DNA from: Dipteris shenzhenensis
Lineage: Eukaryota
Assembly (NCBI GenBank): GCA_047967505.1
Contig: CM106538.1
Reading direction: 5' to 3' (one strand)
Length of the DNA stretch: 64,000 bases
A model generated the notes under the pieces. The model was not told the origin of the DNA and made no database searches. It saw nothing but the letters and a program-made list of their open reading frames with translations. Shown in pieces: positions 13,953 to 63,998 of this stretch. A program made the position numbers and the translations under genes. Each line of letters begins with the position of its first letter. Within the stretch, counting starts at the first letter, position 1.

Positions 13953-13957
13953 TCTTT

Positions 13958-13975
13958 TGGTGGAGACGCCGGGTA
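13958..13975 (+). promoter_or_regulatory. Primer binding site, tRNA-Ala-like
   Basis: TGGTGGAGACGCCGGGTA 5 nt after the LTR end; complementary to a tRNA ending CUCCACCA (Ala acceptor stem). Confidence 0.8.
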
Positions 13976-14632
13976 CGTTTGGTATTGGATTCATCCCACC
14001 TTACTAAACGGTCTCGGGTGTACTTGATTTGCATGTTATGCCTAGAAGAGGCATGTGTTTGTATGAGATAAAGAAGATGCCTGGAAGAACTCCGTTAGAA
14101 GAGATTGCAACCCGTTTAAGAGAACTTGAAGATTGTGAAGGTGATGCTCAAGCTATTCGCACAGTCACCATGATCATATCCTTTATGTTTGCATTGTTGA
14201 ATATGTTGGTGAATCGACAACGCTGGCAGCAGGCACAATGATAAATTGGGGATTGATCCATGCACTGGCAGCTTGGTGTGAAGAAGAGTTGAGTCTTTGG
14301 GTAGTTTTTGACTATAATAGTGGAGTGGTGATTCTTAATGCTTTCGACTTCTTTTGCTATGCAAATGATGAAGATTACAATATCTTGAAGCTTTTATGTG
14401 CACTTCCTATTGTGAGAAGGGTGATTCTAGAAAGCATGTATACACAATGTTTTCATGGTGCTGGTTGGTCACTTATTTTTGAAGATTTTGTTGAGGATCA
14501 CATTGTGGAGGGTTTTCAACAAGTGGTTATGCATAATAAGTTGGTCTTGGTATACTAAGGCTCTGTGGGATCTTGTTCGGATCTTGTTTGGGATATTATT
14601 TGGATCTTGGTGTTTCCTTTTTGTGTTTCATC

Positions 14633-18589: not shown

Positions 18590-18627
18590 GGGCCAGCAGA
18601 CCCTCTCTGTACTAGAGAGGATCTGCT

Positions 18628-18640
18628 GGGGGGGGAAAGA
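18628..18640 (+). promoter_or_regulatory. Polypurine tract
   Basis: GGGGGGGGAAAGA immediately before the 3' LTR TG. Confidence 0.9.
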
Positions 18641-21857: not shown

Positions 21858-21902
<45 letters not shown>

Positions 21903-21929
21903 GGGGGGAAGAGGGGGGAGAGAGATAGC

Positions 21930-21973
<44 letters not shown>

Positions 21974-22063
21974 ACACCAAAATATAGATGTATATATCTA
22001 AACAAATATATATTTATCTCATTAAATAAATATATAAACAAATATATATATATATATATATAT

Positions 22064-22102
<39 letters not shown>

Positions 22103-22200
22103 AGGGAAGGAGGGAGGGAGATTATAAATTGTATATATATATATAGAATATAATATGTATAAATAAATAAATATTTTTATTTATTTATATTTATATTAAC

Positions 22201-22234
<34 letters not shown>

Positions 22235-22563
22235 TTATATATATATATATATATATATATAGTTATATACAGTTATAGTTATACAGAGAGAGGGGGGGAG
22301 GGAGGGAGGGAGATTATAAACTATAACTGTATATATAACTCTCTCTCTCTCTCTCTTAGAGAGAGAGAGAGAGGGGGGGGGAGGGAGGGAGAACGCTATG
22401 TTATATATAAGATATTTGTTTAGTTTTTACATTTTGTATTTAGTTTATATATGGTAGATTGTGTAAGGTTGAAGCATACCAGAGAAATGATGTGGCTATG
22501 GATCACTTTGCAAAGATACCACATGGCAACGAAGCATGATACATGGCAAATTAACACATAGAC

Positions 22564-22595
<32 letters not shown>
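21835..22595. repeat. Compound microsatellite field (GA)n, (CA)n, (TA)n, (CT)n
   Basis: Directly visible; GAGA-GGGG-GGAGGGAGATTATAAA block repeated. Confidence 0.95.
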
Positions 22596-22598
<3 letters not shown>

Positions 22599-24752
22599 TA
22601 TTTGCAGCTACCATTTTTGTGAATTTTTCCATGGTAGTTTCAAAATGTGTGTTGCTTCACATCCTTCTACTTCACATTCTTCCATCTGATTTAGATTCTT
22701 CCTTCTTTCAAATTTGTGTGGAACGACAACTTAAAAATTCTTTGTATATACCAACAAAATCCTGTTTGACAAATAAAACCAAAGGCTCATGATAAAGAAA
22801 CAAATATAGGACAAAATAATTATGATGTTCTTGAGCGTGTAATGTAAATGCTTGGAATCAAGAAGTTGAGAAAAGAAAGTAGACGTAGCGAGGGAAGGAA
22901 TGGTTTGGGAGTAAAAGGAGGTGGATTGGGCATGGATCTATCTTGTGAGGGAGTTAGACATAGTGCAAAAGAAAGGTATGTTAATAGAATGGCTTTTCGC
23001 TATATTGCAACATCATCATGCACTTTAGAAATACTTTAGGAGAATTTATCATATCAAAAATTGCTTTTAAAAGTGGTAAGATGTTAGGTGATAAACTTTA
23101 CTTTTATACAATCAGTTGTTGCCAATATGGATGTTATTAATTTGAACTCAATATATTTTACATAAGGGATTTTCAAACATCAAAGGAGAAAAAGTTTATG
23201 GGGAAGACGGGGTTAGAAAATAACCTCAAAATTCATAGAGGGGGTTATCCAAACCAAAGGAAAATTTAAAGTTACATAGGGGTTTTTTAAGGATACCTTG
23301 AATGCAAAAGATATATCTCCTCTTTTCTAAGTGGATGCCTTGGGGGTTTTTTTTTCTCCGCAAATTGAGCAATGGACTTGCAGCTTCTCAGTTGCTTTGA
23401 ACCATCTTTCAAATTTCAAATTGAGGGATTTGGACAACAAGATGTGCTAGGAGTAAACACTGCTCAAGAAGAATATTGGTGTAATCATTATCATTGGAAG
23501 TTGATGATTGATACGGCACAAAGGAGTTCTGCTTTTCTTGAATTCTAGAAGGCAGCAAAGATGGGAATGCAGGGGCAACCCATGAAAGACCAATCACTTC
23601 AGATTGAATTTGCAAAGCTAGTGAGCGAAGAGACAATAGAGGGCTTGCTTCCTTGATTTGGTTCATTGCGCTTTGGAATTTTGAAAGTAGAAGGATTGCT
23701 GAAGTTACACTCTGTTCTAACATTTTCCAATAGGAAAATTATAATTTTTGTTGGCATATTAAGCCACGACACTCGACAATAATCTAGCAAGTTGGAGAAG
23801 CGAGCAGAGGGATCTTTCATTCCGATGGATTCTTCATCTAAGCTCTTTAATGAGAGATTGCAATATTGCATGTTGATCGTATCCTTTCTTGACACGAATG
23901 GACTAGGAACCTGCTTTCCTGTGATGAGAGGTTGCATTTTGAGAATCGTATTCCAAATCATCTTTTTCCCCTTCTCAAAGGAGTCTGTAGACCTAGTATG
24001 TCTAGCCAACTTTCCATCATCAATGGCCCTTGTGCCGTGCATTAATGTGGTCTTTGAGTGGAAAAGTTCGATAACCCTCAACTCAAATCGTTGGTAAGAC
24101 AAAAAGATATTGGCAAGAGCTTGAGAGGAACTAACAGGATCAACTCACGGGCTCGAGAAGAGGAAAAAGCAACCATAGCTAGACACACACAAAAGAAGAT
24201 AGGGTAAGCCATCTAATTCTTCAAAAGATTCTTTGTAGTATTGAATAAGTTCCTCGGATATAGGCACTATGTCTGATTTTCTTAAACTAAATATGATGGT
24301 CTACATTGATTGTGTTAACAAAATCTTGGTAATGTAGTATTTTCTTCTATATTGCTAGCTGCACCTTCAAGAATCGTTCTCTGTCTCATGAATATAGTAT
24401 TTCCTTCTATATTTCTAGCTAGACCTTCAATAATCGTTGTCTATCTCCTGAATATAGTGACTTTGGTAATGCAGGCCTTTCCTAGATTCTACAAGTTAAA
24501 TAATTGAAGGATATATATTCTTAGCAAAGCAGTTAAAGTCTTTGGGAAGCTTTAGAATAGTTGAATGGGTTCCTCATTTTCAATAAGGTCTCCTTTTCAT
24601 GGAGTTGTTCTTATTTTAGTTTAGCATGGCTAGCTTGGGTATAACTCATCCCTTTGGTTGAAAGCTTTCTTCCAACACTCGAGTGAAACGGTTCATCTTT
24701 CCATAGTAGTTTCATTTTGCATTACTCTTCTTCAAATTTTCATAATCTAGCT

Positions 24753-44619: not shown

Positions 44620-45685
44620 CCTTTCCTGCTGTCCCCTCCCTTGCTGCCCTCCCTCTTCCCCTTCCAGATCCCCCTCCTTCAACCTCCCTCCTCCTTCAAC
44701 CTAGACTTGCTCTCTCTCTTATCTCCCTCCTTCCCTCACCCTCTCCCTTCAGGTGTACCCCCGTTTTTTTTGGGGGTCTCCTGGGCATTAGGAAAGCGGA
44801 CCGAGTTTCTTTATTGTATTTGAGTCAGCCTTACCCACCTCGATTGACGAATCGGCACCCATTTAGTCAATTTGTTACCGCACACACCGGCCGCGAGAAC
44901 CGTCACATTTTCAAAAGACGAGCCGCAACAGTTGCAAAAGGACTTCGAGCATGAGTGTTCCACGACTCTCTTCGCACGTATCTTTGGTTCACACCCCTCC
45001 AGATCACAGGCTAGAGGTTGGATGCTTGCGGTGCTTCCCCAGGAACTCGTCCCCCACCTTAAGGATGTTCGTTTGTTGGGACGAGGTTTCTTTTAGGTGT
45101 GCCTAGGTTCCCTAGATGTCATGAGAGACTTGCTATAGGCTGGGTTTCTACTTCTAGGCTACAGGAGGATTTTTTTGTTTCCCTTTCAATTGGGCTTTGA
45201 CCGGGCGAGAGGTTTGGTGTGGTAGTAGAGATCCCCCCTCTTCCTGGCGAGCCTTCTTCAGCTGCTGAGGCGGTCAGGATGGATGGGGTACCCAGAGTTA
45301 GGGTCCTTGTCCAGGACCCTAATATTTCAAATGACCACATCATGCTACAGCGACCTGATGGGTCTTTCTTCCGCCAAAGGTTCGAGGTTGCAAGTCGGAA
45401 GGACCAGTGCAGGATTTGCAGGTCCTCGAGGCACTTCGCCAGAGATTGCCCAAAGAAGAAAAAGAGGCCCAGAAAGCAACCAGCTCGTACTAGCTTACGA
45501 CAGAGAACAGGAGTAGGATCCTCCGCTCCACAGGCACTGCCTCAGACACGAGCTCCCCCTCCTCCTAGGGTTGCTCGAGTCCCTCCTGCACCCCGCACCA
45601 CCTGTGGTCCACGGTGGGTCAGGCCCTCTACTACAGAGCATACTTCCACTGCTTCGAAGGCATCCCCCTTGGAGCCTCCTAATAC
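44620..45685 (+). mobile_element. LINE 5' end / ORF1 remnant
   Basis: Pyrimidine-rich leader, LFARIFGSHPS...LLGRGFF (DUF4283-like), knuckle CRICRSSRHFARDC; stops present. Confidence 0.75.
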
Positions 45686-45688
45686 AAA

Positions 45689-45955
45689 ACCATTATTACT
45701 AGTTGTAGAACACTTGAGATATCATCACCTCTTAATACAAGACCATTCTTACTATTTGTAGAATACTTGAGATATCATCACTCTTTCCCTTCAGCCCCTA
45801 AGAGGTACCTAATACTTTTGTAGAACACTTGAACCATTCTTACTATTTGTAGAACACTTGAGATATCATCACCTCTTAATATAAGACCATTCTTAGTATT
45901 TGTAGATCACTTTAGATATCATCGCCTCTTAATACAAGACCATTCTTACTATTTG
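45689..45955. repeat. 53-bp minisatellite, ~5 copies with one interruption
   Basis: ACCATTCTTACTATTTGTAGAACACTTGAGATATCATCACCTCTTAATACAAG units. Confidence 0.9.
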
Positions 45956-46170: not shown

Positions 46171-48099
46171 AATGATGAGAGGCACGCACACTACTTAGTA
46201 AATACACTAGTACTACTACTAGCCTATGACTATTAAGCCTAGTAGCACCAGTGTGATTTTGAGCCTTGTATCAGCCTTTGATAAATTTCTTTCATCGTTA
46301 GTGCAATAGAAATTATTCGCCAAATTTATTCAAAGTGATGATTTTGTAGTCTATAGCCACTATCCTCTGACTCTCGAAAATATATTAAATGTGAGCACCC
46401 ATTTATCTTGTATGATCAACCCTAGACTATGCTGCGATAGGACATTACTAGAACAAAAAAAATATGAATTGATATGGCGATGTTCGGTGTGAAATAACCA
46501 AATTAAGGATTTAATAAGAAAGAAAACAATCAGAATCACCAGGCTATTCAATGGCTCAAATCTGCACAAAAATTATAATGTGCCTCCCAACTCTTATGCA
46601 TTCCAGCTCCTCATGTTTGACAAGAATGCAAACAATAATGAAATCACATTATCTTTAGTTTCAAAGTAAGCAAAGCACCAAAAATAAATGCAAACGTATT
46701 TGGATGAGGAATAAATAGGTATAGATATAGATAGACCTATATATATGCATTCATAGATATAATGATGATTAAAGTTGAACGGTCGTAATAATATTATGTG
46801 TACTATCATTGGGATTAGGACTACTATTGAAAATATTGTATGTAGTAGTAGGAGAACTACCATTAAGGAACACTCTAATAAAATTAGTAATGGTGGTGAC
46901 AAAACTACCACTAGTAGTTTGGTAATTACTCCTAACATCTACAACAAATATTTGATGGGTAGCTAGTATTAGGTCAAAAGGCCCCAATTGTGCTATAACA
47001 ATGGGCCAAAAAAGGGAGTGCTATAGCATCACCTAAGGGTCACTTTTTATCCATGAAAGAAACAAGTCGGTGCAACCTAGGTCATATAGATCTAGGTCAC
47101 GTGGAGTGGTTCACGTCTCTTTCCTTGACAAAAAAGTTACACTACCTTTGATAGTAACTACAAAGATTGCTGCCATAGTGCCGTAGAGTAGCCCCTAGGT
47201 TGCACCATCATCATTTTTTGCTTTTGAGCCATTAAGTTTGATCCACTGATTTTATGTAGAATTATTCTACTATATGTTCACATGTCCTTAATAGGATCTT
47301 GATATAATCCCTTCCATTGTAAGTACTTTTACTATAAGTTTCACATATCCTTAACAAACCACTAGGCTTCAACACAGATTCATTCATATGTTTCAAGCCT
47401 CAAACTCAAACACCCTTGTAAAAGGGATAATGTATTAAAGCTACATTCAATCCATCAAATCTTTTGAATGACAGTTCTATTGAAAATTCATGTATCATCA
47501 ATAGGATTTCATCCCATTATATGTTCATTTGTCTTTAATAGTATATCTAAAAATTCATGTATCTTTATTTATGTCCAAACTTGAGCATTGATTTGTATTT
47601 ATCAAACACAATTTCACTCCACCTATTCTTTAGAATGAAATTTTTTCGCCAAAAGTAGGCCAAACGTAAGGTCTTTCCACATATTCTTAAGAATGAAAAT
47701 TTTGGCCTTATGTTGGCAAGTCTATGAAATGAGGGTAAGGCCAAAGTCTCTGGTACGGTGCATTAGGTCTTGATTAATTCTTCTTTAGGCTTGAATATTT
47801 AATGCATTAACTTCACGACTATTATTTATGCTTGAACTTGTAATGTATTAATTTGATGACTTAGGATTTTATGAAGTTATATCTAACATGCCTCAAATTT
47901 AATGGAAATTAATATCCTACATAACACAACAAAGTATCATCATATCCCTTTCCAAAATCAATGCTACCTAGCAACTCTCTTGGCATTTTCACTGCCTTGC
48001 ATTTGAGTTAGCTATGATGAAGAATGTTGCCTGCCTTTGGAACCTCTTAGAGTTACCGTTAGCATGATCTAATTTCACGTATCCCAAAACTTGAGACTT

Positions 48100-48585
48100 G
48101 GAGATTCCCATATCACACCAGCGGTAGCTGTCTTGTCCACTCTCAATGCTAGTAAGAGCTGGGCCCCATAGACCGGTAAAAGAAGTCTTTTTGGAGGTTC
48201 AATTTTTTCCCTCCGTCTTCTGCAGGCCCCATGATGAAATAGGATGTATTCATCACCCTACATTTAATGCAAGAATTAACACAACTTTTTTTGGACCTGA
48301 CTATGCAGTTTACATCCCAAAATTGGTGCTAAAATTGCAAACTAGGAGATTCCCATATCACACCAACAGTAGCTGTCTTGTCCATTCTCAACACTAGTAA
48401 GAGCCGGTCCCCATAGACCGGTAAAAGAAGTCTTTTTGGAGGTTCAATTTTTTGCCTCCGTCTTCTCCGGCCCCATGACAGAATAGGATATATTCACCAC
48501 CCTACATTTAATGCAAGAATTGACAACTTTTTTTGGACATGACTATGCAGCTTACATCCCAAAATTGGTGCTAAAATTGCATACT
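48100..48585. repeat. ~245-bp tandem duplication
   Basis: GGAGATTCCCATATCACACCA...CCCAAAATTGGTGCTAAAATTGCA at ~48100 and ~48345. Confidence 0.92.
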
Positions 48586-48689
48586 GGGCATCTCCATTTG
48601 CCGGGGGGTGTCCCTATCCCTAGCGACCCCTTGGACTTGCTCTATTTGTCTAGTTGTGTCTCTCCACAAAAATCGGAGTGGGGCCTATT

Positions 48690-49037
48690 TTTCCCATCTA
48701 GTAAAACTATATGCATCAATATGTATGTATGTATGTATGCATGCATGCATGCATGCATACATCCATGTATGTATGTACACACACACACATGTATGTATGT
48801 ATGTATGTATCATGTATGTATGTGTACTAAAACTACTAAAACTATATGCATCAAATAATGTTGTTGATCAATTTTTGGCATACCCCACCAAAATCAAGAC
48901 CCCCATTGCAAAGAAAGGTAAGGAACACAAGTGCTTGTTCTTATGCTCATGAGACAACAAAATGCATGACATAGGTAACCAATGGGGTCTTACTTTTGAT
49001 GTTTGTATGTATGCATGTATGTATATATGTACATACA

Positions 49038-49073
<36 letters not shown>

Positions 49074-49607
49074 TGTATGTATGTATATGTATATGTTGAT
49101 GCATATATGTATATATTGATGTATATATTGATGCATACAATTTTGATATATGGAGAAAATGGACATGAAAACCATCTAAATTGGCTCTTGTCGTTCGATT
49201 TGATATATGACATGATCCCATTTGGATTTGTAAGTACAAAGATATGGGGTCCTACTTTTAGGGCCTGAATGCCTAAAATAGGCAGCACGTTAAAGCGCTA
49301 CCTATTTCATGCATTTAGGCCTCAAAAGTAGGATCCCATTGGCAACACAATGGGGTCCTAGTTTTGAGGCCTAAATGCATGAAATAGACAGCGCGTTAAC
49401 GCGCTGTCTATTTTAGGCATTTAGGCCCTAAAAGTAGGACCCCATATCTTTGGACTTACAAATCCAAATGGGATCATGTCATATATCAAATCGAATGACA
49501 AGAGCCAATTTAGATGGTTTTCATGTCCATTTTCTCCATATATCAAAATTGTATGCATCAATATATACATCAATATATACATATATGCATCAACATATAC
49601 ATATACA

Positions 49608-49639
<32 letters not shown>

Positions 49640-50354
49640 ATGTATGTATGTATGTATGTACATATATACATACATACATACATACAAACATCAAAAGTAA
49701 GACCCCATTGGTTACCTATGTCATGCATTTTGTTGTCTCATGAGCATAAGAACAAGCACTTGTGTTCCTTACCTTTCTTTGCAATGGGGTTCTTGATTTT
49801 GGTGGGGTATGCCAAAAATTGATCAACAACATTATTTGATGCATATGTTTTGAGGCCTAAATGCATGAAATAGACAGTGCGTTAACGCGCTGTCTATTTT
49901 AGGCATTCAGGCCCTAAAAGTAGGACCCCGTATCGTTGGACTTGCATAAAATAGACAGCGCGTTAACGCGCTGTCTATTTTATGCAAGTCCAACGATACG
50001 GTTAACGCGCTGTCTATTTTAGGCATTCAGGCCCTAAAAGTAGTACCCCGTATCGTTGGACTTGCATATCCAAATGGAGTCATGTCGTATTCAAATCGCA
50101 AGGCAAGATCCAATTTAGATGGTTTTCATGTCCATTTTCTCCATCAACTAAAACTATATTCATCAAATAATGTTGTTGATAATTTTTTGGCATACCCCCC
50201 CAAAATCAAGACTTCCATTGCAAAGAAAGGTAAAGAACACAAGTGCTTGTTCTTATGCTCACGAGACAACAAAATGCATGACATGGGAAACCAATGGGGT
50301 CTTACTTTTGATGTTTGTATGTATATATATGCATGTACATACATACATACATAG

Positions 50355-50401
<47 letters not shown>

Positions 50402-51181
50402 TGTATGTATGTATGTATATGTTGATGCATATATGTATATATTGATGCATACAATTTTGATATATGGAGAAAATGGACATGAAAATCATCTAAATTGTCT
50501 CTTGCCGTTTGATTTGATATATGACATGACCCCATTTGGATTTGTAAGTCCAAAGATACGGGGTCCTACTTTAAGGGCCTGAATGCCTGAAATAGGCAGC
50601 GCGTCATCTAAATTGTCTCTTGCCGTTTGATTTGATATATGACATGACCCCATTTGGATTTGTAAGTCCAAAGATACAGGGTCCTACTTTTAGGGCCTGA
50701 ATGCCTGAAATAGGCAGCGCGTTAACGCGCTGCCTATTTCATGCATTTAGGCCTCAAAATTAGGATCTCATTGTGTTGCCAATGGGGTCCTACTTTTGAG
50801 GCCTAAATGCATGAAATAGGCAGCACGTTAACGCGCTGCCTATTTTAGGCATTCAGACCTTAAAAGTTGCATATCCGAATGGGGTCATGTCATATATCTA
50901 ATCGAATGGCAAGATCCAATTTAGATGGTTTTCATGTCCATTTTCTCCATCAACTAAAACTATATTCATCAAATAATGTTCTTTATCAATTTTTGGCATA
51001 CCTTCCCTAAAATCAAGACTCCCATTGCAAAGAAAGGTAAGGAACACAAGTGCTTGTTCTTATGCTCATGAGACAACAAAATGCATGAAATAGGGAACCA
51101 ATGGGGTCCTAATTTTGCTGTATGTATGTAAGTATGTATATATGTATGTATATACATATATATATATCTATATGTGTATAT

Positions 51182-51215
<34 letters not shown>

Positions 51216-51896
51216 ATATGTATATATATGTATATGTATATGTATATGTTGATGCATATATGTATATATTGATGTATATATTAATGCATACAATTTTGAT
51301 ATATGGAGAAAATGGACATGAAAACCATCTAAATTAGCTCTTGTCGTTCGATTTGATATATGACATGATCCCATTTGGATTTGTAAGTCCAAAGATATGG
51401 GGTCCTACTTTTAGGGCATGAATGCCTGAAATAGGCAGCGCGTTAACGTGCTACCTATTTCATGCATTTAGGCCTCAAAAGTAGGACCCCATTGGCAACA
51501 CAATGGGGTCCTAGTTTTGAGGCCTAAATGCATGAAATAGATAGCGCATTAACGGGCTGCCTATTTTAGGCATTCAGGCCCTAAAAGTAGTACCCTGTAT
51601 CTTTGGACTTGCATATCCAAATGGGGTCATGTGATATATCAAATGGAACGGCAAGATCCAATTTAGATGGTTTTCATGTCCATTTTCTCCATCAACTAAA
51701 ACTATATTCATCAAATAATGTTGTTGATCAATTTTTGGCATACCCGCCCAAAATCAAGACCCCCATTGCAAAGAAAGGTAAAGAACACAAGTGCTTGTTC
51801 TTATGCTCATGAGACAACAAAATGCATGACATGGGAAACCAATGGGTTCTTACTTTTGATGTTTGTATGCATGTATGTATGTATATATATGCATGT

Positions 51897-51950
<54 letters not shown>

Positions 51951-52633
51951 GTATGTATATGTTGATGCATATATGTATATATTGATGTATATATTGATGC
52001 ATACAATTTTGATATATGGAGAAAATGGACATGAAAATCATCTAAATTGGCTCTTGCCGTTTGATTTGATATATGATATGACCCCATTTGGATTTGTAAG
52101 TCCAAAGATACGGGGTCCTACTTTTAGGGCCTGAATGGCTGAAATAGGCAACGCGTTAACGCACTGCCTATTTCATGCATTTAGGCCTCAAAAGTAGGAC
52201 CCCATTGTGACCCCATTGTGTTGACAATGGGGTCCTACTTTTGAGGCCTAAATGCATGAAATAGGCAGCGCGTTAACGCGCTGCCTATTTCAAGCATTCA
52301 GGCCCTAAAAGTAGCACCCCGTATCTTTGGACTTGCATATCCGAATGGGGTCATGTCATATATCAAATCGAATGGCAAGATCCAATTTAGATGGTTTTCA
52401 TGTCCATTTTCTCCATCAACTAAAACTATATTCATCAAATAATGTTGTTTATCAATTTTTGGCATACCCTCCCAAAATCAAGACCCCCATTGCAAAGAAA
52501 GGTAAGGAACACAAGTGCTTGTTCTTATGCTCATGAGACAACAAAATGCATGAAATAGGCAACCAATGGGGTCCTAATTTTACTATATGTATGTAAGTAT
52601 GTATATATGTATGTATATACATACATATATATC

Positions 52634-52688
<55 letters not shown>

Positions 52689-53801
52689 ATGTATATGTTG
52701 ATGCATATATGTATATATTGATGCATACAATTTTGATATATGGAGAAAATGGACATGAAAACCATCTAAATTGGCTCTTGTCGTTCGATTTGATATATGA
52801 CATGATCCCATTTGGATTTGTAAGTCCAAAGATATGGGGTCCTACTTTTAGGGCCTGAATGCCTAAAATAGGCAGCGCGTTAACGCGCTACCTATTTCAT
52901 GCATTTAGGCCTCAAAAGTAGGACGCCATTGGCAACACAATGGGGTCCTAGTTTTGAGGCCTAAATGCATGAAATAGACAGCGCGTTAACGTGCTGCCTA
53001 TTTTAGGCATTCAGGCCCTAAAAGTAGTATCCCGTATCTTTGGACTTGCATATCCAAATGGGGTCATGTCATATATCAAATGGAACGGCAAGATCCAATT
53101 TAGATGGTTTTCATGTCCATTTTCTCCATCAACTAAAACTATATTCATTAAATAATGTTGTTGATCAATTTTTGGCATACCCCCCCAAAATCAAGACCCC
53201 CATTGCAAAGAAAGGTAAAGAACACAAGTGCTTGTTCTTATGCTCATGAGACAACAAAATGCATGACATGGGAAACCAATGGGGTCTTACTTTTGATGTT
53301 TGTATGTATGTATATGCATGTACATACTTACATACATACATATATATATATATGTATGTATGTATATGTTGATGCATATATGTATATATTGATGCATACA
53401 ATTTTGATATATGGAGAAAATGGACATGAAAATCATCTAAATTGGCTCTTGCCGTTTGATTTGATATATGACATGACCCCATTTGGATTTGTAAGTCCAA
53501 AGATACGGGGTCCTACTTTTAGGGCTTGAATGCCTGAAATAGGCAGCGCGTTAACCAATGGGGTCCTACTTTTGAGGCCTAAATGCATGAAATAGGCAGC
53601 GCGTGACATGATCCCATTCGGATATGCAAGTCCAAAGATACGGGGTCCTACTTTTAGGGCCTGAATGCCTGAAATAGGCAGCGCGTTTAAACGCGCTGCC
53701 TATTTCAGGCATTCAGGCTCTAAAAGTAGGACCCCGTATCTTTGGACTTGCATATCCGAATGGGATCATGTCATATATCAAATCGAATGGCAAGATCCAA
53801 T
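48690..53801. repeat. Array of ~720-bp units each containing a ~390-bp nested palindrome and a TATG/CA microsatellite
   Basis: Palindrome centres at ~49345, 50776, 51497, 52221, 52934; core GGCAGCGCGTTAACGCGCTGCC twice per unit. Confidence 0.97.
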
Positions 53802-55534
53802 TAGTTCTATCGTACTAGAAATGAATGCATCTAACCACTATGTTGAGTGCTCATCTAGTATCCTGTAGACTATTATGTTAAACTCAATACGTGACCACAA
53901 ACTCAAGCATAAGAGGAGCATGATTCAAGTGAAATAATTGGCAAAGACACTTTGTAACTAGTATCCTGCTGCATCTAATGGAAAATATGCACCAGGCGTT
54001 AACAAGCTTCTATTTCCACCCCTATAAGCAAACTCGTATCCTATAGTATGAAAAACTTTAAGGAAAACATTGCACTTAATGCATCAATTAAGCGAGTGAC
54101 TACTCATCATGCACAATCGAACAATCATCAAGGAAAGTCTAGTCTAAGCAAGTTGAAGCAAAAAACCAATATCTATTCGGATCTATGCCATGGTGTATCC
54201 GCCAACCATGAGTAGCAAAAGAACCTATGGAAAAAGCAAAATAGGGATTATGCCACTCTACCATGATCACTTCCATGCTACAAATAAGGGAATACATAGT
54301 CGTTTTAGGGTACTTTTAGGGTTCATTCCCAACCACTAAAAAGAGAGCCAATGCTATCTATTTGTATTCCTAAAATCTTTATGAACATTATCATGTTCAA
54401 TATAAGGATAGGAGCCAGCTCAATGGGTAGTCTTAAACAAATATATATACTATTCGAATTTTAACCTTATGCAAAAGCTTTTTTTTTAACACAAAGTAAA
54501 ACTTGATTATACATATAGATGGGAATCACATCACCATTGTAAGTATGTATTTAGTAATTAAGTTGAAAATATTCCCTTCGAAAAATAGCTCAATTAACAT
54601 AGTACCCATATTATATATCCAAAATTTACAAGATCTCATTCATACCATTAGATTGTTTTCATCACTTGTCATAAGTACTAACCTCAATTGGCATTATGTA
54701 TTTGCGTCAAAATAGTTTTTAGTATAGGATATAATGGAGCAATATATTTATGTAATATCTAGTGATCATAGTTTCTAATATAGGATAAAATGGAGCATAG
54801 AGTAATGTTGTCATTCAAAAATGATAATATACCTTCTTTGACCATATACAAGTATCATGCATTCATTAAAAAAGTTAGTCATAAACTGCAATATAATGTG
54901 CCCATAATGCATGTACATTAAATCTTCACATGTTAGAATGTGAGAAACGGAATAATTTACCTATGAAATCAGGGATCAATGTAGGAAATGGTCTTCTATG
55001 CACACATATATGCTAAGGGTCCATCTAATACAATATTGAAAATTGATACGAGTATAAGTGTATGCATCCATCGGTGATGTATATGAGTGTATGCATCCAT
55101 TTGTGATTTATATTGTTGTACTAATCCATGATGCTTTACGGCTTGAGTTGTTTGTAGCGCAATTAATCACAACAATGTTGTATTCAAGCATTTCCTGCAA
55201 GCAATCTCCATCCCTCCCTTTCCTGCTTACTCTTTCGGCCACCTCCACCCTCTTGTTGCCCTTCAAGACTGCCTCTTGCCTCCTCGCCTCCTTGCTTCCT
55301 CACCTCCTTGCTTCTTTGCCTTCTCACCTCCTTGCATCATGCTTGTTGCTGGCAATTCCAAGGCTCTCACCCCCTCATTGGCCAGCTCCTCTACTCCTCA
55401 CGTCATCCTTCCCCTCATTTTGGTGTCTCCAATGAATAGCTTGGGGGTCTTGTTTTTGGAGGGGAGAAGCATAAGAATGGCAACACGTTAATGCACTGTC
55501 ATTTTTCGTGCTTTTGCCACCCAAAAACAAGACC

Positions 55535-55650
55535 TGCAAAGCCCTTGCTTAAGCTTGAATGAGCCTCTTGATTTTGGGCGGTCAAGTCATTTTTGACCAT
55601 TATACCCCCAAAATCAAGAGGCTCATTCAAGCTTAAGCAAGGGCTTTGCA
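55535..55650. repeat. Hairpin with perfect 44-bp arms
   Basis: 55535-55578 is the exact reverse complement of 55607-55650. Confidence 0.92.
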
Positions 55651-56269
55651 AGCATTGCAAGTCCAATAAATGAAATCAATCAGATTAGGAATTGGCAAAC
55701 TCGATTTGAAAATGGTCAAAAATACTTTGTCTTTGAATAATGCCTTGGATCATGGGATGGGGTCCCATGAACCTGCTGCCTGTGATGACGAATAGTTCTG
55801 CCCTCAACTAAAGGTGACGTGTGTAGTAGTAAAAGGATAGCCCTGATGGAATCTCTAAGGGGTCTTGATTTTGGCCATGATTTGCACGTTCTAGCACTTG
55901 AGCCATACATCAATTTCCAACACTTGAGGCATATAGTGGCTTTGCCCACGCAACGTTTCCAGCTGCAATCCAAGCATCAAGCAATCTCATATTCTGTATC
56001 CAGAGACATCACAAGGGGTAGAGCCTCCTTTTGGTAGTCTCACTAGCAATATGTATTGAAAAAAAAAAATATTCAATTATTATATTCTTCCTTGCTATAT
56101 GAATGCTCTTAATGCATCCAAATTGTAGAACTACTTCAATACTACTTCTTAGTTATATTGTATAATAACCTCCATATGTATGCTCGTGAGACAACAAAAA
56201 AGAGACCTGGCAACCCAAAAATGATAGCGCATTGATGTGCTGCCATTTTTAGGCTACCAGGCCTCTTTT

Positions 56270-56900
56270 TTAATGTCTCCTGAACATAAGAACAAGCAAT
56301 TGTATTCCTTACCTTTCTTTCCAATGGGGGTCTTGATTTTGGGGGTATATGCCAAAAGTTAATAAACAACATTATTTAATGCATGTAGTTTTATTAAATA
56401 GATAAAATAGGCATGAAAACATCTAAATTGGCTCTTGCCATTCGATTTGATGTATGACATGATCCCATTTGGATTTGTAATTCCAAAGATACGGGGTCTT
56501 ACTTTTAGGGCTTGAATGCTTGAAATAGGCAGTGCGTCAATGCGCTGCCTATTTCATACATTTAGGCCTCAAAAGTAGGACCCCATGTAGGAGCAAATGA
56601 GGTCCTACTTTTGAGGCCTGAATGCATGAAATAGGTAGCACACTAACAAGCTACCTATTTCAAGAATTCAAGCCCTAAAAGTAGGACCCCGTATCTTTGG
56701 ACTTACAAATCCCAATGGGATCATGTCCTATATCAAATCGAACGGCAAGAGCCAATTTAGATGGTTTTCATGCCTATTTTCTCCATCAATCAAAACTGTA
56801 TGCATGAATATATACATCAAGATATGCATCAATATATACATAATGTATGTGTATATATACATACATACATACATACATGTGTGTGTGTGTGTGTGTGTAT

Positions 56901-56931
<31 letters not shown>

Positions 56932-57187
56932 CACACATATAGATATATATGTATGTATATACATACATATATACATACTTACATACATACAGTAAAATAA
57001 GGACCCCATTGGTTACCTATTTCATGCATTTTGTTGTCTCATGAGCATAAGAACAAGCACTTGTGTTTCTTACCTTTCTTTGCAATGGGGGTCTTGATTT
57101 TGGGGGGGGTATGCCAAAAATTGATAAATAACATTATTTGATGAATATAGTTTTAGTTGATCGAGAAAATGGACATAAAAACCATTT
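56270..57187 (-). repeat. Inverted, more diverged copy of the palindromic unit (~1.3 units)
   Basis: Spacer sequence appears reverse-complemented (CATAAGAACAAGCA..CCTTTCTTT) at ~56285 and ~57046; palindrome centre ~56590. Confidence 0.92.
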
Positions 57188-57599
57188 CCATGTTTTTGGA
57201 TCGAATGTATGGATGATCTTCTGCAAGCATAAAAGACATGATATGTATATGTAGCACATGATCACGTTTACATATTTTCAGTCATATATTCTACCTTGTG
57301 ATCTATCATTATCTTACTGTGTGGATGTTTAATATGAGTAGTGTTTGCTTTTTTAATCGCAAATTTTATGTATTGTTGTGTCTCTACCTCTCCACGACTC
57401 AAATGTGATAGTATGGGGATGAAAGAGAAGTTAATTGTGAGTTTCAGGCATGCCTTCATTGTTGGAATATGTTTAATTTTCTTATGATCACATCAATTGT
57501 TCCAATGATATTGAGAGGAATAAGATGCTGGATGAGGTTCTTGCTCGCTTGAAACCTATTTAATCTTGCTCGCTTATTTGGGGCTGCTCGCTTTTTGGT

Positions 57600-58644: not shown

Positions 58645-61600
58645 TCACGGAGGGAGAAAACGAGTATGAACGAACAGCCATCGGGGTGGTGAGTAGTGCC
58701 ACCGAAGGCCCTGCGTAGTCTGCTCGAAGAAGAGGCCCTGTGTGTCCCAAGTCCGGAGGAAGCGTCTCCGCTTCTCCTGACCGGCCCGGGAGTCTCCCTG
58801 AATCTGGTCCCACTGGCCTCTGAGGGTATGGATAATCTCACTCCAAATCTCCGCCATGATCTGGGCAGTCGATAAGGAGGTGCCACCGAGGATCTGCGCG
58901 CAGCGCGAGGTCCAGATGTGCCACCCTGTAATGCTGCTAATAATCTCCCATACTGGCTGCCTCTCCCGGACTCCTGTGTCAGCCTCTGCTAGGTGCTGTG
59001 GGATACCCTCGAGCGGTCCCCACGTGCCCTGTGTGACAAGGAAAGTGGGGTCCTGCTGACATGCCTCAAAAAAGTGATGAAGACCAGGTGCGGTGCTGCA
59101 CCAACAGAACGCGCCCCAAGTGATCAATCCTAGCTCTGGTGCTGCGCGAGTAAGAATCCCAAAAGTCCACCTCCACACTTCCTGGGCGCGAGTGCAGCTC
59201 CACAGGCAGTGCTTTGGTGTCTCCTCATCCGCATGGCAAATCTGGCAACATCCGTCCTGGCCTATCTGCCTCAGCCAGCTCCCCACTGGAAGACCTTTGT
59301 GGGCAAGAAGCCACAGGAAGTATGAGATCTTCCGTGGCCGCCAACTCTCCCACAAGGCCTTCCAGAATGCCTGTAAAAAGAACCTGGAAAGACCCTGTGC
59401 GTACCAGCTGGGTCGCTGGGTGGGGGGGCGGCTCTGCATCCTCCCGAGAACTCGCCTGCCCAAAGTCGTACTGTAGGCGAAGAAAGAGGTCGGCCCCTGA
59501 CCTGTCACAATCTCTGGCCACCACCACTCTCCTGGATCCCAATCAAGCTCTGCTAAGGCCCGCCCCTCCCAAAGCCAAAGACGCCAGAGCTGCACCTGGT
59601 CCTGCTCGATGCTAGGGTCGGTATGCCAGACCTTCCCCAAGAGGCCTACGACCCGAACCCTCTGCCACGGGAGTAGGGGGTCGATGAGCGCACCCTCTGT
59701 CCTGAGTCGTCCCTCCCCAGAAACCGCGAAGAAGGAAATAGAAGAGTCATCCAAACGTCCTGCGACCACCAGTGGAATGCCACGGGGGGTGAACTGTCCC
59801 AGCCATCGGGTGTCACCAGGCATGATGATCTGGGGCTCAGGTGGGGCCAACCAAGCCGCTGGGATCGCTCCGTCGATCTCCATGCGTCTCGCCTGGGCTC
59901 CACGTGCACCTCCAGCTGCGTCTGCAAGATCTGTCATCTCTAGATGTCTGTACGTATCCCTCCAAACACGCAGGGATCGGGCTGGGCCCCTCATCCAACC
60001 GTCCCACCTGATATGTGATCTCTCCCCCAACTGAAGGCCCTCGGCATCTCTGACCTGACTGTTCCAGATAAGCGGCTGGCGATCGATCTCCTCCTGACAG
60101 CTGGGAGGGGACTGAATGAGACTGAGACGGAGCCGCCTCCAGACCATGAGGAGGCTACGAACTAGAGGGGAACGGGGCTGAGTGAGCGGGGCGGAGGTGA
60201 AGATCCACCTGAAGGACGGTAGCCAATCTCCACCTCGGCGCGGGACACAAGAGCCGACTCCCTGCTGAAGTAGCATCTTCCACGTCTGCCCCCCTGGGGT
60301 CAAACCGCGAATGACAAGCTTGCCTAACAAGGCCTGACTCTGAAGCTCTGGATCAATGACCCCCAGGCCACCCTCAGCCTGCGGAAGAATGACTGTCTGC
60401 CACGCAACCCTGGCTCTGATATCTCTATGACCATCCTCCCCAGACCAAAGGAAGTTCCGAACCAACCTCCTGAGCTGTGCCACGCTGGATCTCGAGAAGC
60501 ACCAGCAGGAAGCCACATACCAAGCCGTGGCTAGGAGGACCTGGTTGACTACCAAGGCACGACCTGCAAGAGAGAGCTTAGCAGTGCTCCAGAAAGCCAG
60601 CTTCCGTCGGATGGAATCTAGCACCGGGAGAAACTGCTGAGCTGGTGTGATGTCTAGGCCAACCTGGAAGCCAAGGTATCTAGCTGTCTGTCCACGTGGA
60701 ATCCATCTGAAGCCCAAAAATCGCCCCCACTGAGAACACGCCCCAGGGTCTGTGAGAAAACCAACGGATTTGTTCCAATTGATTTTCGCCCCAGCGGCCG
60801 AGCAGAAAACCTCCAGGGCCATCCGCACCCTCTCTAGCATCCGCTCGTCGTCCTGGACATAAAGGGCTGTATCATCTGCGTACTCCGAGTCCAAGAGCTC
60901 CGTGTCCTCCCGGAGTGGAAGGCGAATACCCCTGAGCCCTGTGGACCTCGCCCGAAGGTAGTAAGTCATGGCCTCGGCGAAGAAGAGAAACAAGTAAGGG
61001 GCCAGGGGGCAGCCCTGACGTACTGATCTCTCCAAGCTAAAGCGCTCGCCCAACCTGCCTCCAATGATGACTCTGCTAGACGCTGTCCTGTACAAAGCTG
61101 AGATACCCTGAATCCAACCTGCCGGGAAACCTAGCCGCTCCAGAGTCCCCTCCAAAAAGGACCAATCCACGCGATCGTAGGCCTTCTCGAAATCGAGAAG
61201 TAGAATGGCAAGGTGTGATCCGCTGTGCTGAGCCCACTCCGCCGCCTCTGAAAAGGTGAAGACGTTATCCAGGATACTGCGATCCTGGACAAAGCCTGTC
61301 TGAGTGTCATGGACGAGGTCTGAAAGTAGAGGCCGAACTCTGGCACTGATCATCTTGGCGAGGATTTTGTAGGCAGAGGTAAGGAGAGTGATCGGACGCC
61401 ACTGGCGAATCTCCTGTCTATCTCCTCCCTTCGGGATGAGGCAAATCAGTCCCGAGGAGAGGCTCTCTGGCATCCGACCGCTGCTGAAAATCCCCTGCAG
61501 GGCTGCAAGGAGGGGCTGATGGATCTGGTCCCAGAAGGAGGTGAAGAAAGCTCGGGATAGCCCATCCTCACCTGGGCACTTCTGACCATCAATAGCCATC

Positions 61601-63036
61601 AAGGCCTCCAACATCTCATCCGAGGTGAGAGGCGCCAACAACGTCGCCTGCATGCTAGGCTGGACCAGGGATGGAATGTGCCTCCACACCTCCTCACGGG
61701 CACGACTGGCACGAGGGGCAAGCGGCTCCTGCTGGAAGAGGGTCCTGTAAAAGTCCGTGGCCAACCCCAGGACCTCCCCTGGATCCGTAACGATGTGACC
61801 CTCCGCTGTCCTGAGACTCCGAAGCTGATCACCTGCAGCTCTCTGGCCATGCGTCCTAAAGAACTCCCTGCACATCCGGTCACCCTTTCGGGCCCAAAAG
61901 GAGCGAGAGGCGTGAAAGGAAAACTCGGAACGACGCTGGAATGTCTCCTCCAGGAGGGCTCTGGCTCGAAGGGCCTGGATCCGCAGCTCCTCCGAACCCG
62001 GGGAAGCCTGCTGGAGTCGCTGAATGGAGGCGAGGTCCCTCCGAAGAGCTCTCTCTCTGCCCCACCAATCCTGTCGAACCTGTAAAGCTGCGAGCTGGCA
62101 GATCTGGCTAGACTCCTGCAGAGCCTGTGCGACTGAGTCTACCAGATCCACGCCCTCCCCCCAATCTCTGTCCCAAAGACTGCATATGCTGCTGCGCACG
62201 TCCACCCTCGAGAAGATGGAGTCGGGAATCCTGCATGATCGGGAGGGGAGGGTCTGGGCTGCCGAATCTAAGGAAAGGAGCACAGGCGCATGATCGGAGA
62301 GTGTCGTCCCTGGAACTATACCCGCCTGGCCGCCTCTGCTGATGGCCCAGTCACTGACATAAAATCTATCAAGCCTCTCCAGGAGTCTGCCTCCTTCCCT
62401 GCGGAAGCCCCAAGAGAAGTCCAGGCTCCCGTGCCAACGCCGGAAGGACGGGTCTCTCCAACTGTCCCTCCCTCCCGTCTCGAAGATGAAAGAGTCCCAA
62501 GCTGACTGCTCTGCCTGGGCCATACCTGTGAACTCCGGGCCTCTGCCCTGCTGGTCCTCCAGGGTCTCCAGGTTGTTGAAGTCTCCTCCAACAATCCAGG
62601 AATCCATGTCTGGAAGAATCCCTGTAAGTGTCCTCCAGAAGGTGGCTCTGCAACGGAGGTCTGTGGGGGCATAAATGTTGAGGATGCCTATTTTGGATCC
62701 CTCCAAGTCCAGGCCTACCCAAAGGGCTCGGCCAGGAATCAACGTGCCGTGACCAAAAACTCCCTGGGCTAACTGCTCGCACACGGAAGTACAGACACCC
62801 CCACTCCTCCCCTGAGCGCCGATCGAGGGCTCCCAATAAGTGTAGGACCGTCCAGGGAGAATCTTCCCGCAGCTACGGGAATGAGCCACAGAAAGCTTGT
62901 GCTCCTGGAGCAGAAGTACATCCAAACGACCAATCACTGCAGGCTGAAGTTCCTGCCGCAAAATGAGCTTCCTGGGACCACGGGTGCCAGAGGAGTGAAA
63001 CCCGTTCACATTCCAGGATACGAGGTGTAAGCTCAT
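58645..63036 (-). CDS. LINE ORF2p: AP-like endonuclease, reverse transcriptase, zf-RVT
   Basis: 1463 aa open; SWNVNG, LQEHK, GGDFN, SDH; WRPITLL, DFEKAYD, RQGCPLAP, YADD (60871-60882); CQIC...HCLWSC. Confidence 0.97.
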   Translation of the reverse strand: MSLHLVSWNVNGFHSSGTRGPRKLILRQELQPAVIGRLDVLLLQEHKLSVAHSRSCGKILPGRSYTYWEPSIGAQGRSGGVCTSVCEQLAQGVFGHGTLIPGRALWVGLDLEGSKIGILNIYAPTDLRCRATFWRTLTGILPDMDSWIVGGDFNNLETLEDQQGRGPEFTGMAQAEQSAWDSFIFETGGRDSWRDPSFRRWHGSLDFSWGFRREGGRLLERLDRFYVSDWAISRGGQAGIVPGTTLSDHAPVLLSLDSAAQTLPSRSCRIPDSIFSRVDVRSSICSLWDRDWGEGVDLVDSVAQALQESSQICQLAALQVRQDWWGRERALRRDLASIQRLQQASPGSEELRIQALRARALLEETFQRRSEFSFHASRSFWARKGDRMCREFFRTHGQRAAGDQLRSLRTAEGHIVTDPGEVLGLATDFYRTLFQQEPLAPRASRAREEVWRHIPSLVQPSMQATLLAPLTSDEMLEALMAIDGQKCPGEDGLSRAFFTSFWDQIHQPLLAALQGIFSSGRMPESLSSGLICLIPKGGDRQEIRQWRPITLLTSAYKILAKMISARVRPLLSDLVHDTQTGFVQDRSILDNVFTFSEAAEWAQHSGSHLAILLLDFEKAYDRVDWSFLEGTLERLGFPAGWIQGISALYRTASSRVIIGGRLGERFSLERSVRQGCPLAPYLFLFFAEAMTYYLRARSTGLRGIRLPLREDTELLDSEYADDTALYVQDDERMLERVRMALEVFCSAAGAKINWNKSVGFLTDPGACSQWGRFLGFRWIPRGQTARYLGFQVGLDITPAQQFLPVLDSIRRKLAFWSTAKLSLAGRALVVNQVLLATAWYVASCWCFSRSSVAQLRRLVRNFLWSGEDGHRDIRARVAWQTVILPQAEGGLGVIDPELQSQALLGKLVIRGLTPGGQTWKMLLQQGVGSCVPRRGGDWLPSFRWIFTSAPLTQPRSPLVRSLLMVWRRLRLSLIQSPPSCQEEIDRQPLIWNSQVRDAEGLQLGERSHIRWDGWMRGPARSLRVWRDTYRHLEMTDLADAAGGARGAQARRMEIDGAIPAAWLAPPEPQIIMPGDTRWLGQFTPRGIPLVVAGRLDDSSISFFAVSGEGRLRTEGALIDPLLPWQRVRVVGLLGKVWHTDPSIEQDQVQLWRLWLWEGRALAELDWDPGEWWWPEIVTGQGPTSFFAYSTTLGRRVLGRMQSRPPTQRPSWYAQGLSRFFLQAFWKALWESWRPRKISYFLWLLAHKGLPVGSWLRQIGQDGCCQICHADEETPKHCLWSCTRAQEVWRWTFGILTRAAPELGLITWGAFCWCSTAPGLHHFFEACQQDPTFLVTQGTWGPLEGIPQHLAEADTGVRERQPVWEIISSITGWHIWTSRCAQILGGTSLSTAQIMAEIWSEIIHTLRGQWDQIQGDSRAGQEKRRRFLRTWDTQGLFFEQTTQGLRWHYSPPRWLFVHTRFLPP

Positions 63037-63998
63037 GGAGAGGGAAGGGGGGCTGCGAACAACTGTCTGCTCGCGGTCGAAGTCGAAGAAGAACCAGACG
63101 TATCGGAATGGAGGCGCTGCCGCTTATGAGAAGGTTTGGAGGGGGAGACGGGGTCGTCCTGCCCGTTCTTCAACACCTTCAGCAAAGGCGAGAGGCCTTT
63201 GGTGCCATGAGCAAATGCTTTCTCGAGCCAGCTCGAGATCTCTGAAGAGGTCATCCCGTAGAAGGTTCGGAGTTTCTGCTGGGACCAAGCTCTGACATCC
63301 TGGGGGAGAGGCCATGACAGGGGAGGTCGGAGGATCACTATCAGTCGGAAGCGTTTGGCGGCGCAACGCCACCGCAAGCGCACGTCGCCCTCGGACCACT
63401 GAGTCTCGAGGAGCTGCCCACCGGACGGGCCTATCCAGGAACACACCTGGGCGTGCGTCTGCTCTCTGAGAGCCTCCCAAACCGAGTCGTCTGTCCAGGT
63501 CTCGGTGCCATCACTGAGGAACGTGAAAGCGAAGCTAGGGCCATCCCTGGGAGCCAAGGCACCAATCCTCCCATCCGCCCCTTTGCGGAGCAGGAAAATA
63601 CTGATGTCGAGACAAGCCGGGAAGGTCCCAAGGTCGGCCACATCCAGGTAGTCCCAGGGGCCAGATCTGTAGAAGTCTCGTGGAAGCTCTCTCTCATGGA
63701 GCTGAGACCCAACTGAGTCTACCACTGAGGGGCTAGCGGGAAGGGAAGCCTGCTCCACTGGTGGTGTAGACTCCGGGTGTCCTGCCAGCGAGGGGGGAGG
63801 GGGAGGAGGCTGAGGGATAGGCAGCTCTGACTCCACGGAGGCGACTGGCGGAGGAGGTGGAGGAGGTGGAGCGGGGGCTGCACACGGCTGGGAAGCCGGT
63901 GGTGCAGCTAACTCTGAGGGAGAGGCGAGGGGGACCAGGGGGGGGGGGGATGGGGGTGCAGCTGGAGCTGGGGCTGAGAGGGAGGAAGAGAAGACTGA
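63033..63998 (-). CDS. LINE ORF1p, C-terminal part (5'-partial)
   Basis: Frame stays open from the window edge to TGA 63035-63033, which overlaps the ORF2 ATG (ATGA). Confidence 0.85.
   Translation of the reverse strand, partial: SVFSSSLSAPAPAAPPSPPPLVPLASPSELAAPPASQPCAAPAPPPPPPPPVASVESELPIPQPPPPPPSLAGHPESTPPVEQASLPASPSVVDSVGSQLHERELPRDFYRSGPWDYLDVADLGTFPACLDISIFLLRKGADGRIGALAPRDGPSFAFTFLSDGTETWTDDSVWEALREQTHAQVCSWIGPSGGQLLETQWSEGDVRLRWRCAAKRFRLIVILRPPLSWPLPQDVRAWSQQKLRTFYGMTSSEISSWLEKAFAHGTKGLSPLLKVLKNGQDDPVSPSKPSHKRQRLHSDTSGSSSTSTASRQLFAAPLPSP

Follow-up and report, generated by a model that had tools for sequence, protein, structure and literature searches.

The stretch analyzed here, 64,000 nt of contig CM106538.1 in the Dipteris shenzhenensis assembly GCA_047967505.1 (hereafter, the window), contains a tandem array of six units of a palindrome-bearing repeat (Table 1). 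The order within the unit is a spacer of ~175 bp (S), then a compound microsatellite of the form (TATG)n/(TACA)n/(GT)n or (AC)n, and then a long palindrome of 386-434 bp. Anchor motifs locate the start of the left arm, the end of the right arm, and the full spacer start six times each, and the head-to-tail arrangement is confirmed for all six units. Unit sizes range from 713 to 807 bp, the start-to-start spacings of full units being 807, 741/742, 724, and 713 bp, and the right end of the array falls inside the right arm, at unit position 687 of 714. A preceding sequence-only reading of this locus had noticed the tandem array of nested palindromes, which is indeed found at 48688-53802. The loss of the loop in unit 6, the conversion of unit 1 into a 1,019-bp palindrome, and the minus-strand family fragment at 56268-57213 had been missed.

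Table 1. Features of the palindromic repeat family and its immediate surroundings (positions in the window)
Feature	Position	Strand	Remarks
Whole tandem array, six units	48688..53802	+	~5.1 kb; each unit with spacer S, microsatellite, and palindrome
Unit 1, A-type loop GCAACA 49342-49347	48836..49854	.	converted into 1,019-bp palindrome
Rearranged right-arm segment	49855..50141	+	new 69-nt palindrome 49931-49999; junction 49999/50000
Unit 2, subtype B, loop TGTTGC 50774-50779	50142..50948	+	118-bp tandem duplication; 21-bp deletion
Unit 3, subtype A, loop GCAACA 51495-51500	50949..51690	+	
Unit 4, subtype B, loop TGTTGA 52219-52224	51691..52414	+	11-bp duplication beside loop, junction 52207/52208
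Module x, 44 nt, example	52229..52272	+	palindrome building block
Exact 32-bp core palindrome, example	52259..52290	.	centre GCGCG-TTAA-CGCGC
Unit 5, subtype A, loop GCAACA 52932-52937	52415..53127	+	
Unit 6, subtype B spacer and left arm, loop deleted	53128..53802	+	junctions 53555/53556, 53602/53603
Middle stretch, from array to inverted fragment	53803..56267	.	unique in window, apparently non-coding, ~2.5 kb
Diverged family fragment	56268..57213	-	~86% identity to array unit

The palindrome of unit 3 consists of two arms of 214 nt each (51281-51494 and 51501-51714), which are 88% complementary and separated by a 6-nt gap. The inverted repeat of ~390 bp that had been placed at 51303-51692 is thus present, but it represents only the inner part of this structure. 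Each arm contains a sub-palindrome of ~100 bp centred on a GC-rich core of 32 bp, again as noticed before. With at most three mismatches allowed, this core occurs 12 times in the window, 11 times in the array and once at 56523, and is absent from dinucleotide shuffles; exact copies are found at two positions, 50708 and 52259. Similarly, the palindrome centre CCCATTG-N6-CAATGGG is observed five times in the window, the expectation being 0.02. Copy differences among the cores at 49276, 50814, 51429, 51535, 52142, and 52972 appear to be mostly transitions at CG positions (GCGCG to GCACG, GTGC, or GCGCA). Such transitions would be expected from deamination of methylated cytosine.

Examination of the arms revealed a 44-nt building block, module x, which at a threshold of at least 30 identical positions of 44 has 32 matches in the region 48000-57500 and none elsewhere in the window. 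Its orientation mostly alternates, + - + - within each regular unit, and the layout of the palindrome can be written as x, core turn, x', loop turn, x, core turn, x'; the outer and inner versions of the module have 38 of 44 positions in common. The sub-period of 106 bp reported by Tandem Repeats Finder is explained by this x / turn / x' order. The spacer, in turn, carries two degenerate recurrences of the first 18 nt of the module (6 matches per unit versus 0.04 in shuffled sequence), and therefore the whole unit looks like a patchwork of one hairpin module. Given this zig-zag patchwork, a single strand of the unit is predicted to be able to fold either as a rod of ~190 bp or as branched hairpins. 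In particular, the predicted folding energy of the 434-nt palindrome as single-stranded DNA is -188 kcal/mol, versus -44 +/- 4 for shuffled sequences (z = -34.9). The long rod is the predicted minimum in all four units tested (-185 to -212 kcal/mol), and the branched form, with two local hairpins of ~100 nt and an outer stem, is predicted to be weaker by 35-52 kcal/mol and still strongly stable; the two foldings proposed in the sequence-only reading are both consistent with these calculations.

Alignment of the palindromes divides the units into two subtypes, type A (units 1, 3, and 5) and type B (units 2 and 4, together with what is left of unit 6), with fixed differences along both arms. For the informative-site test we used the four complete units (U2-U5) and 598 aligned columns, with the microsatellites left out. 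There are 62 ungapped variable columns, 36 of them singletons; the grouping (U2,U4 | U3,U5) is favored by 21 informative sites, two of which sit within the loop itself, the split into neighbors by one site, and the third possible split by none. Pairwise identity is 96.9% between the A units, 95.4% between the B units, and 91.1-93.5% between units of different types. The spacers alternate in the same way, with 96.0-98.3% identity among those of B type, 94.8% for A type, and 90.2-92.6% across types. As this comparison shows, the array is a dimeric higher-order repeat (HOR) with strict A-B alternation and a period of about 1,437-1,466 bp, in which units one period apart are more alike than adjacent units. 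Since the spacer and the microsatellite share the alternation, what is repeated is the entire unit of 0.72 kb rather than a palindrome that was inserted.

The five loops retained between CATTG and CAATG start at 49342, 50774, 51495, 52219, and 52932 and read GCAACA, TGTTGC, GCAACA, TGTTGA, and GCAACA, exactly as reported previously. Their linkage with the subtype is complete (5/5): all three A units have GCAACA, and the two B units that retain a loop have TGTTGC or TGTTGA. Loop orientation is linked to at least 19 other fixed A/B differences, and the alternating loops therefore do not indicate flip/flop isomerisation, which the sequence-only reading had brought up. At this locus the alternating loops are a fixed A/B difference copied as part of the dimer, in line with the 21:1:0 distribution of informative sites. 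One old inversion followed by dimer copying had been named beforehand as the outcome that would speak against flip/flop, and within the window the data fit this course of events.

An active flip/flop system, in which the loop would be inverted recurrently by recombination between the arms or by an extrachromosomal rolling-hairpin replicon, has to be considered here, as exact reverse-complement loops do exist, fold-back copies occur in the array (see below), and the zig-zag of module x through two alternating kinds of turn would resemble the topology of a rolling-hairpin concatemer. Nevertheless, recurrent flipping would decouple the loop from the subtype, and the two are tied in all five cases. 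The proposed link to parvovirus-like replication found no counterpart either: Pfam scans of 30 open reading frames (ORFs) detected no Rep-like or nickase domain, scans of viral contigs gave no match, and the array is internal, in a chromosome-like context with unique flanks. We therefore regard active flip/flop as highly improbable. More generally, no active isomerisation is required to account for loops that are flipped from one unit to the next where a tandem array has the structure of a dimeric HOR.

The inversion of the loop is genuine. TGTTGC matches the reverse complement of GCAACA exactly and at unchanged length, and no more than one or two sites differ in the stems next to it; the chance of obtaining an exact reverse complement by six independent changes is (1/3)^6 by our own arithmetic. 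Loop inversions through template switching in hairpins, including those of loops of 7-8 nt, have been documented, and the difference between GCAACA and TGTTGC has the features by which such inversions are recognized in that study (PMC8794818). Most likely the inversion happened only once, through a template switch during replication across the hairpin or through recombination of the two arms, and these two routes would give identical loop products.

The array has been further modified by nine structural events, four of which have a breakpoint no more than 3 nt away from the centre of a core (GCGCG/TTAA/CGCGC), at 49999, 50603, 53555, and 53602; with core centres making up ~2% of the unit, the binomial probability of at least four such events of nine is 2.5e-4. 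The duplication in unit 2 (50486-50721, 98% identity according to Tandem Repeats Finder) has its junction, 50603/50604, at a core centre, and the deletion in the right arm of the same unit lies near 50874. In unit 6, the junction 53555/53556 removed the loop by connecting the left core centre with the edge of the main loop, and a second core-centre junction follows at 53602/53603. Next to it, at 53604-53790, there is a new core-centred palindrome of ~187 bp (centre TTTAAA), both arms of which are of the right-arm type. Similarly, the rearranged segment 49855-50141 has a junction into a core centre, and its new 69-nt palindrome is core-centred, with a deletion mirrored on both sides. The events located away from core centres are the 11-bp duplication touching the loop of unit 4, the 21-bp deletion in unit 2, and the junction at 49846, where short microhomology is apparent by eye.

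The 1,019-bp palindrome of unit 1 contains arm pairs of 292 nt with 93% complementarity (I4) and of 215 nt with 98% complementarity (I10). On its right side, all outer diagnostic sites are of the left-arm type (8/8), and the inner ones of the right-arm type (2/2). The left side is thus mirrored in the outer right arm, microsatellite, and spacer, the inner part of the right arm has stayed native, and the transition falls within or close to the right core. Complementarity of the mirrored spacer to its counterpart is 98% and not 100%, and hence this copy has aged in the genome. We infer that unit 1 is a fold-back copy: after a break or stall in or near the right core, the inner arms would have paired, and the 3' end would have been extended along the left arm. 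Taken together, these footprints support a role of hairpins in shaping the repeat, by junctions at palindrome centres and by fold-back copies.

The simple repeats of the family also contain changes of direction. The microsatellites switch strand sense within a tract, e.g., from (TATG)n to (TACA)n and back to (TATG)n (49018-49128, 51119-51281, 51897-51939, and about 56870-56920), and the microsatellite of the minus-strand fragment includes a (GT)n-ATA-(CA)n palindrome. Where A-type units carry (GT)n, one B-type unit carries (AC)n. Small strand switches thus occur in simple repeats too.

The hairpin footprints agree with the earlier suggestion that the repeat amplifies through its own hairpins only in part, as amplification of the dimer more likely proceeded by unequal exchange or slippage. 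Growth of the family by hairpin-primed fold-back synthesis in place of unequal exchange appears unlikely to us. According to that proposal, the zig-zag of module x through the core and CATTG-N6-CAATG turns would be a fossil of repeated rounds of fold-back, and the cores would be preferred, perhaps enzyme-recognized, break sites that still drive the birth of units. If true, it would represent a non-viral analogue of rolling-hairpin amplification, and could shed extrachromosomal copies.

Public sequencing data provide evidence from beyond the window. The runs that best match the dimer contain only 0.20-0.22 of its sampled words, and no run listed as RNA is among them. Contigs with pieces of the family at 95-99% identity were obtained from runs X1 (nine contigs), X2 (9 of 12), and X20 (2 of 3), the last of which is only tentatively an RNA run; the combinations of variants in these contigs match no copy in the window, and therefore other copies or alleles exist. 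Two contigs (X1 record 2 and X2 record 11) span an A-type loop, and both have GCAACA together with the A-type state of a neighboring marker. The 114 contigs of run X4 were rejected as evidence for the family, since all of them fall on the microsatellite-like tract 51969-52005.

These contigs also bear on a possible assembly artefact, namely, that chimeric fold-back reads or a collapsed repeat gave rise to the irregular parts or to the alternation. Palindromes and tandem repeats are difficult to assemble. However, the arms, the loop, the spacer, and the arm-spacer junctions are recovered at 95-100% identity by independent public contigs, the mirrored arms differ at 2-7% of sites, and the A/B differences are consistent across units, so that an artefact of this kind seems very unlikely.

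The diverged fragment on the minus strand downstream of the array contains, in this order, a right-arm end, spacer, microsatellite, a palindrome, and a partial spacer. Its palindrome is symmetric, with both arms of the left type. The fragment ends in a core-like palindrome of 76 nt (about 56190-56270), which resembles a diverged symmetric x-core-x' module, lies inside the spacer, and is flanked by a mirrored 17-nt piece of spacer; it is a further fold-back junction, in an older copy. The last unit position reached by the array is 687, and the same arm is taken up again at about 679-690 in the minus-strand fragment, at 57185-57213. An inversion of ~3.4 kb (53803 to about 57205) with one breakpoint in the right arm would explain this arrangement by splitting one array in two.

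The same layout, with 5.1 kb of plus-strand array and 0.95 kb of minus-strand fragment placed 2.5 kb apart, could also be read as array, middle, and inverted array of a foldback-type transposon or a miniature inverted-repeat transposable element (MITE); a simple inversion explains it too. The palindrome would then be mobile and non-autonomous, or the units would be the modular inverted terminus of an element whose transposase is located elsewhere. The palindrome of 386-434 bp is indeed MITE-like in size and shape, and two X2 contigs run from the family into unrelated DNA (at 51654 and 52008), so that other loci or array ends exist. A precedent is known in Tetris, with internal repeats that seeded satellite arrays (PMC4079207). 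However, no shared outer termini were found: the outermost 75 nt of the two ends score 10, versus a mean of 12.5 and a maximum of 22 in shuffles, and the ends match solely through the internal module formed by the right-arm end and the spacer start. No target-site duplication is seen by eye at 48688 or 57213, although this is a weak test in AT-rich flanks; no solo palindrome without spacer and microsatellite occurs in the window; and Pfam scans of ORFs from 45.1 to 58.6 kb revealed no transposase domain. The A/B alternation of the complete 0.72-kb unit further argues against a mobile palindrome. A foldback terminus, also suggested in the sequence-only reading, is in our opinion doubtful, though it deserves more credit than the other alternatives discussed here. 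The flanks of the array have no similarity to each other, which speaks against their origin from one interrupted element, and are unique within the window. A Helitron-like interpretation of the core as a 3' hairpin was considered and dropped, as the hairpin is not followed by an end of the CTRR type.

The repeat is non-coding, as had been proposed, a conclusion supported by the scans of its ORFs and of the whole window. Neither of the two array ORFs matches a Pfam family, nor do 16 of the 18 flanking ORFs in the scanned region (45.1-58.6 kb); only two matches were obtained there, both outside the array, one to a zinc knuckle (45201-45761, weak) and the other to part of an endonuclease adjoining a long interspersed nuclear element (LINE). 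In the middle stretch 53803-56267, none of the eight ORFs scanned (at least 70 aa) has a Pfam match. The Rfam scan of the whole window gave no match at the gathering score. Scans of metagenome and viral contig collections with the 30-nt inner-arm and 28-nt core patterns yielded no locus, and a full-text literature search with strings from the repeat, which did not cover Repbase and Dfam, returned no paper. The family has apparently not been recorded before, and represents palindrome-bearing satellite-like DNA of a known kind.

The DNA of the window is eukaryotic and rich in transposons, and its set of domains presumably gives it a plant-like look. The LINE mentioned above occupies 58645-63998 on the minus strand; it has an uninterrupted ORF of 1,492 aa with endonuclease, reverse transcriptase, and zf-RVT domains (58645-63123), and a second open frame upstream exits the window. 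This copy may be young. A retrotransposon with long terminal repeats (LTRs) spans 11885-20515 and encodes Ty3/gypsy-type gag, protease, reverse transcriptase, and RNase H in ORFs at 14540-18589, which are flanked by the long direct repeats; the scanned ORFs did not reveal an integrase domain. Its LTRs are 98-100% identical in sampled 300-nt pieces, and each contains 179-bp tandem repeats (12998-13447 and 19821-20281). Two tandem copies of ~245 bp with 90% identity (48086-48588) adjoin the left edge of the array and are unrelated to it. The window also contains a G-rich low-complexity tract with GC skew up to 0.57 and purine-rich (AGG/GAG)n arrays (8458-8990 and 10159-10406), as well as a cluster of five different dinucleotide microsatellites (GA, AC, AT, AG, and TA) inside 750 bp (21860-22600).

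The above analysis suggests that the locus is a non-coding, satellite-like array produced by dimeric A/B amplification, a single loop inversion, and palindrome-centred rearrangement, an explanation that we consider likely. The array has been amplified locally within a transposon-rich genome, with the A-B pair of ~1.44 kb as the unit of the latest amplification; as for ordinary satellites, unequal exchange or slippage during replication is the most likely route. One exact inversion of the 6-nt loop, which is fixed and linked to about 19 substitutions, separates A from B and would have been multiplied as part of the dimer. The GC-rich cores may act as break or switch points, so that the palindromes would be active on an evolutionary time scale: a 3' end at a core would fold back on the complementary arm and be extended, and such extension could yield mirror copies, new palindromes, duplications, and deletions with junctions at palindrome centres.

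Several observations weigh against this explanation. The sample is small, six array units and one inverted fragment from a single locus. The extent of the inversion is unbounded beyond 6 nt, the arms being too symmetrical and the few asymmetric markers, 14 and 41-42 nt away from the loop, ambiguous. The nine structural events were curated by eye from alignments, some junctions can be placed in more than one way owing to the palindromic context, and assembly error is possible at some irregular junctions. Among the public contigs aligned, which cover at most 247 nt of the stretch, none spans a B-type loop. Finally, the footprints do not tell whether the dimer was amplified by unequal crossing-over or by fold-back synthesis.

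Higher-order repeats are a general concept in satellite DNA, with dimeric satellites as an example. The array studied here is similar to dimeric HOR satellites in its head-to-tail units, in the strict A/B alternation, and in the identity of 95-97% one period apart versus 91-93.5% between neighbors. It differs from them in being only ~5 kb long, with six units, each of which carries a microsatellite and a palindrome of ~400 bp.

Among satellites with inverted parts, one from T. brevicornis (Tribolium) was reportedly described by Mravinac et al. in 2005. Tribolium satellites, the nearest case described, have inversely oriented subunits or macro-dyad symmetry (PMC13081366), and share with the present repeat the conjunction of satellite and microsatellite and the long inverted parts, from which hairpins or cruciforms can arise. 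However, there is no sequence relation, the Tribolium host is an animal, and its dyads span kilobases of (peri)centromeric arrays, whereas here they lie inside each 0.7-kb unit and are nested at three scales (PMC13081366). Similarly, Tetris, a foldback transposon of Drosophila virilis with the TIR-220 satellite, resembles the repeat in its modular, rearrangement-prone repeats and in the tie between foldback structure and emerging tandem arrays; in contrast, Tetris is dispersed, and its defined terminal inverted repeats are common to it and a MITE (PMC4079207). Neither termini of this kind nor discrete dispersed copies were detected in the window.

Two mechanistic precedents correspond to individual footprints. 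As in template-switch inversions, the loop is an exact reverse complement of kept length with untouched stems, but those cases concern hairpins of RNA genes with loops mostly of 4 nt, whereas here a 6-nt loop is located in a DNA palindrome of ~190 bp and has been multiplied by the array (PMC8794818). Foldback inversions and palindrome-centre breakage in yeast and human are reported to produce hairpin-primed inverted duplications with junctions at palindrome centres, which are similar to those seen here; the known cases are induced or pathological, whereas in the repeat they would be represented by fixed footprints (PMC7467729, PMC7999016). The array provides a compact natural record of palindrome-centred rearrangement, with core-centre junctions, new palindromes, and a 1-kb fold-back copy, and shows how hairpin-forming repeats remodel themselves.

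In parvoviruses, flip and flop are forms of the same terminus; they are about equally abundant, and neither depends on the remainder of the genome. The two loop orientations of the repeat appear analogous to these forms in being exact reverse complements within a palindrome, but here the orientation is fixed for each subtype, the position is not terminal, and no Rep gene was found, so the resemblance is one of form only. In its behaviour the family is a higher-order-repeat satellite with a long dyad in the monomer, and, given the whole genome, it would be well suited to testing how frequently satellite variants are made by template switching and fold-back synthesis rather than by unequal exchange.

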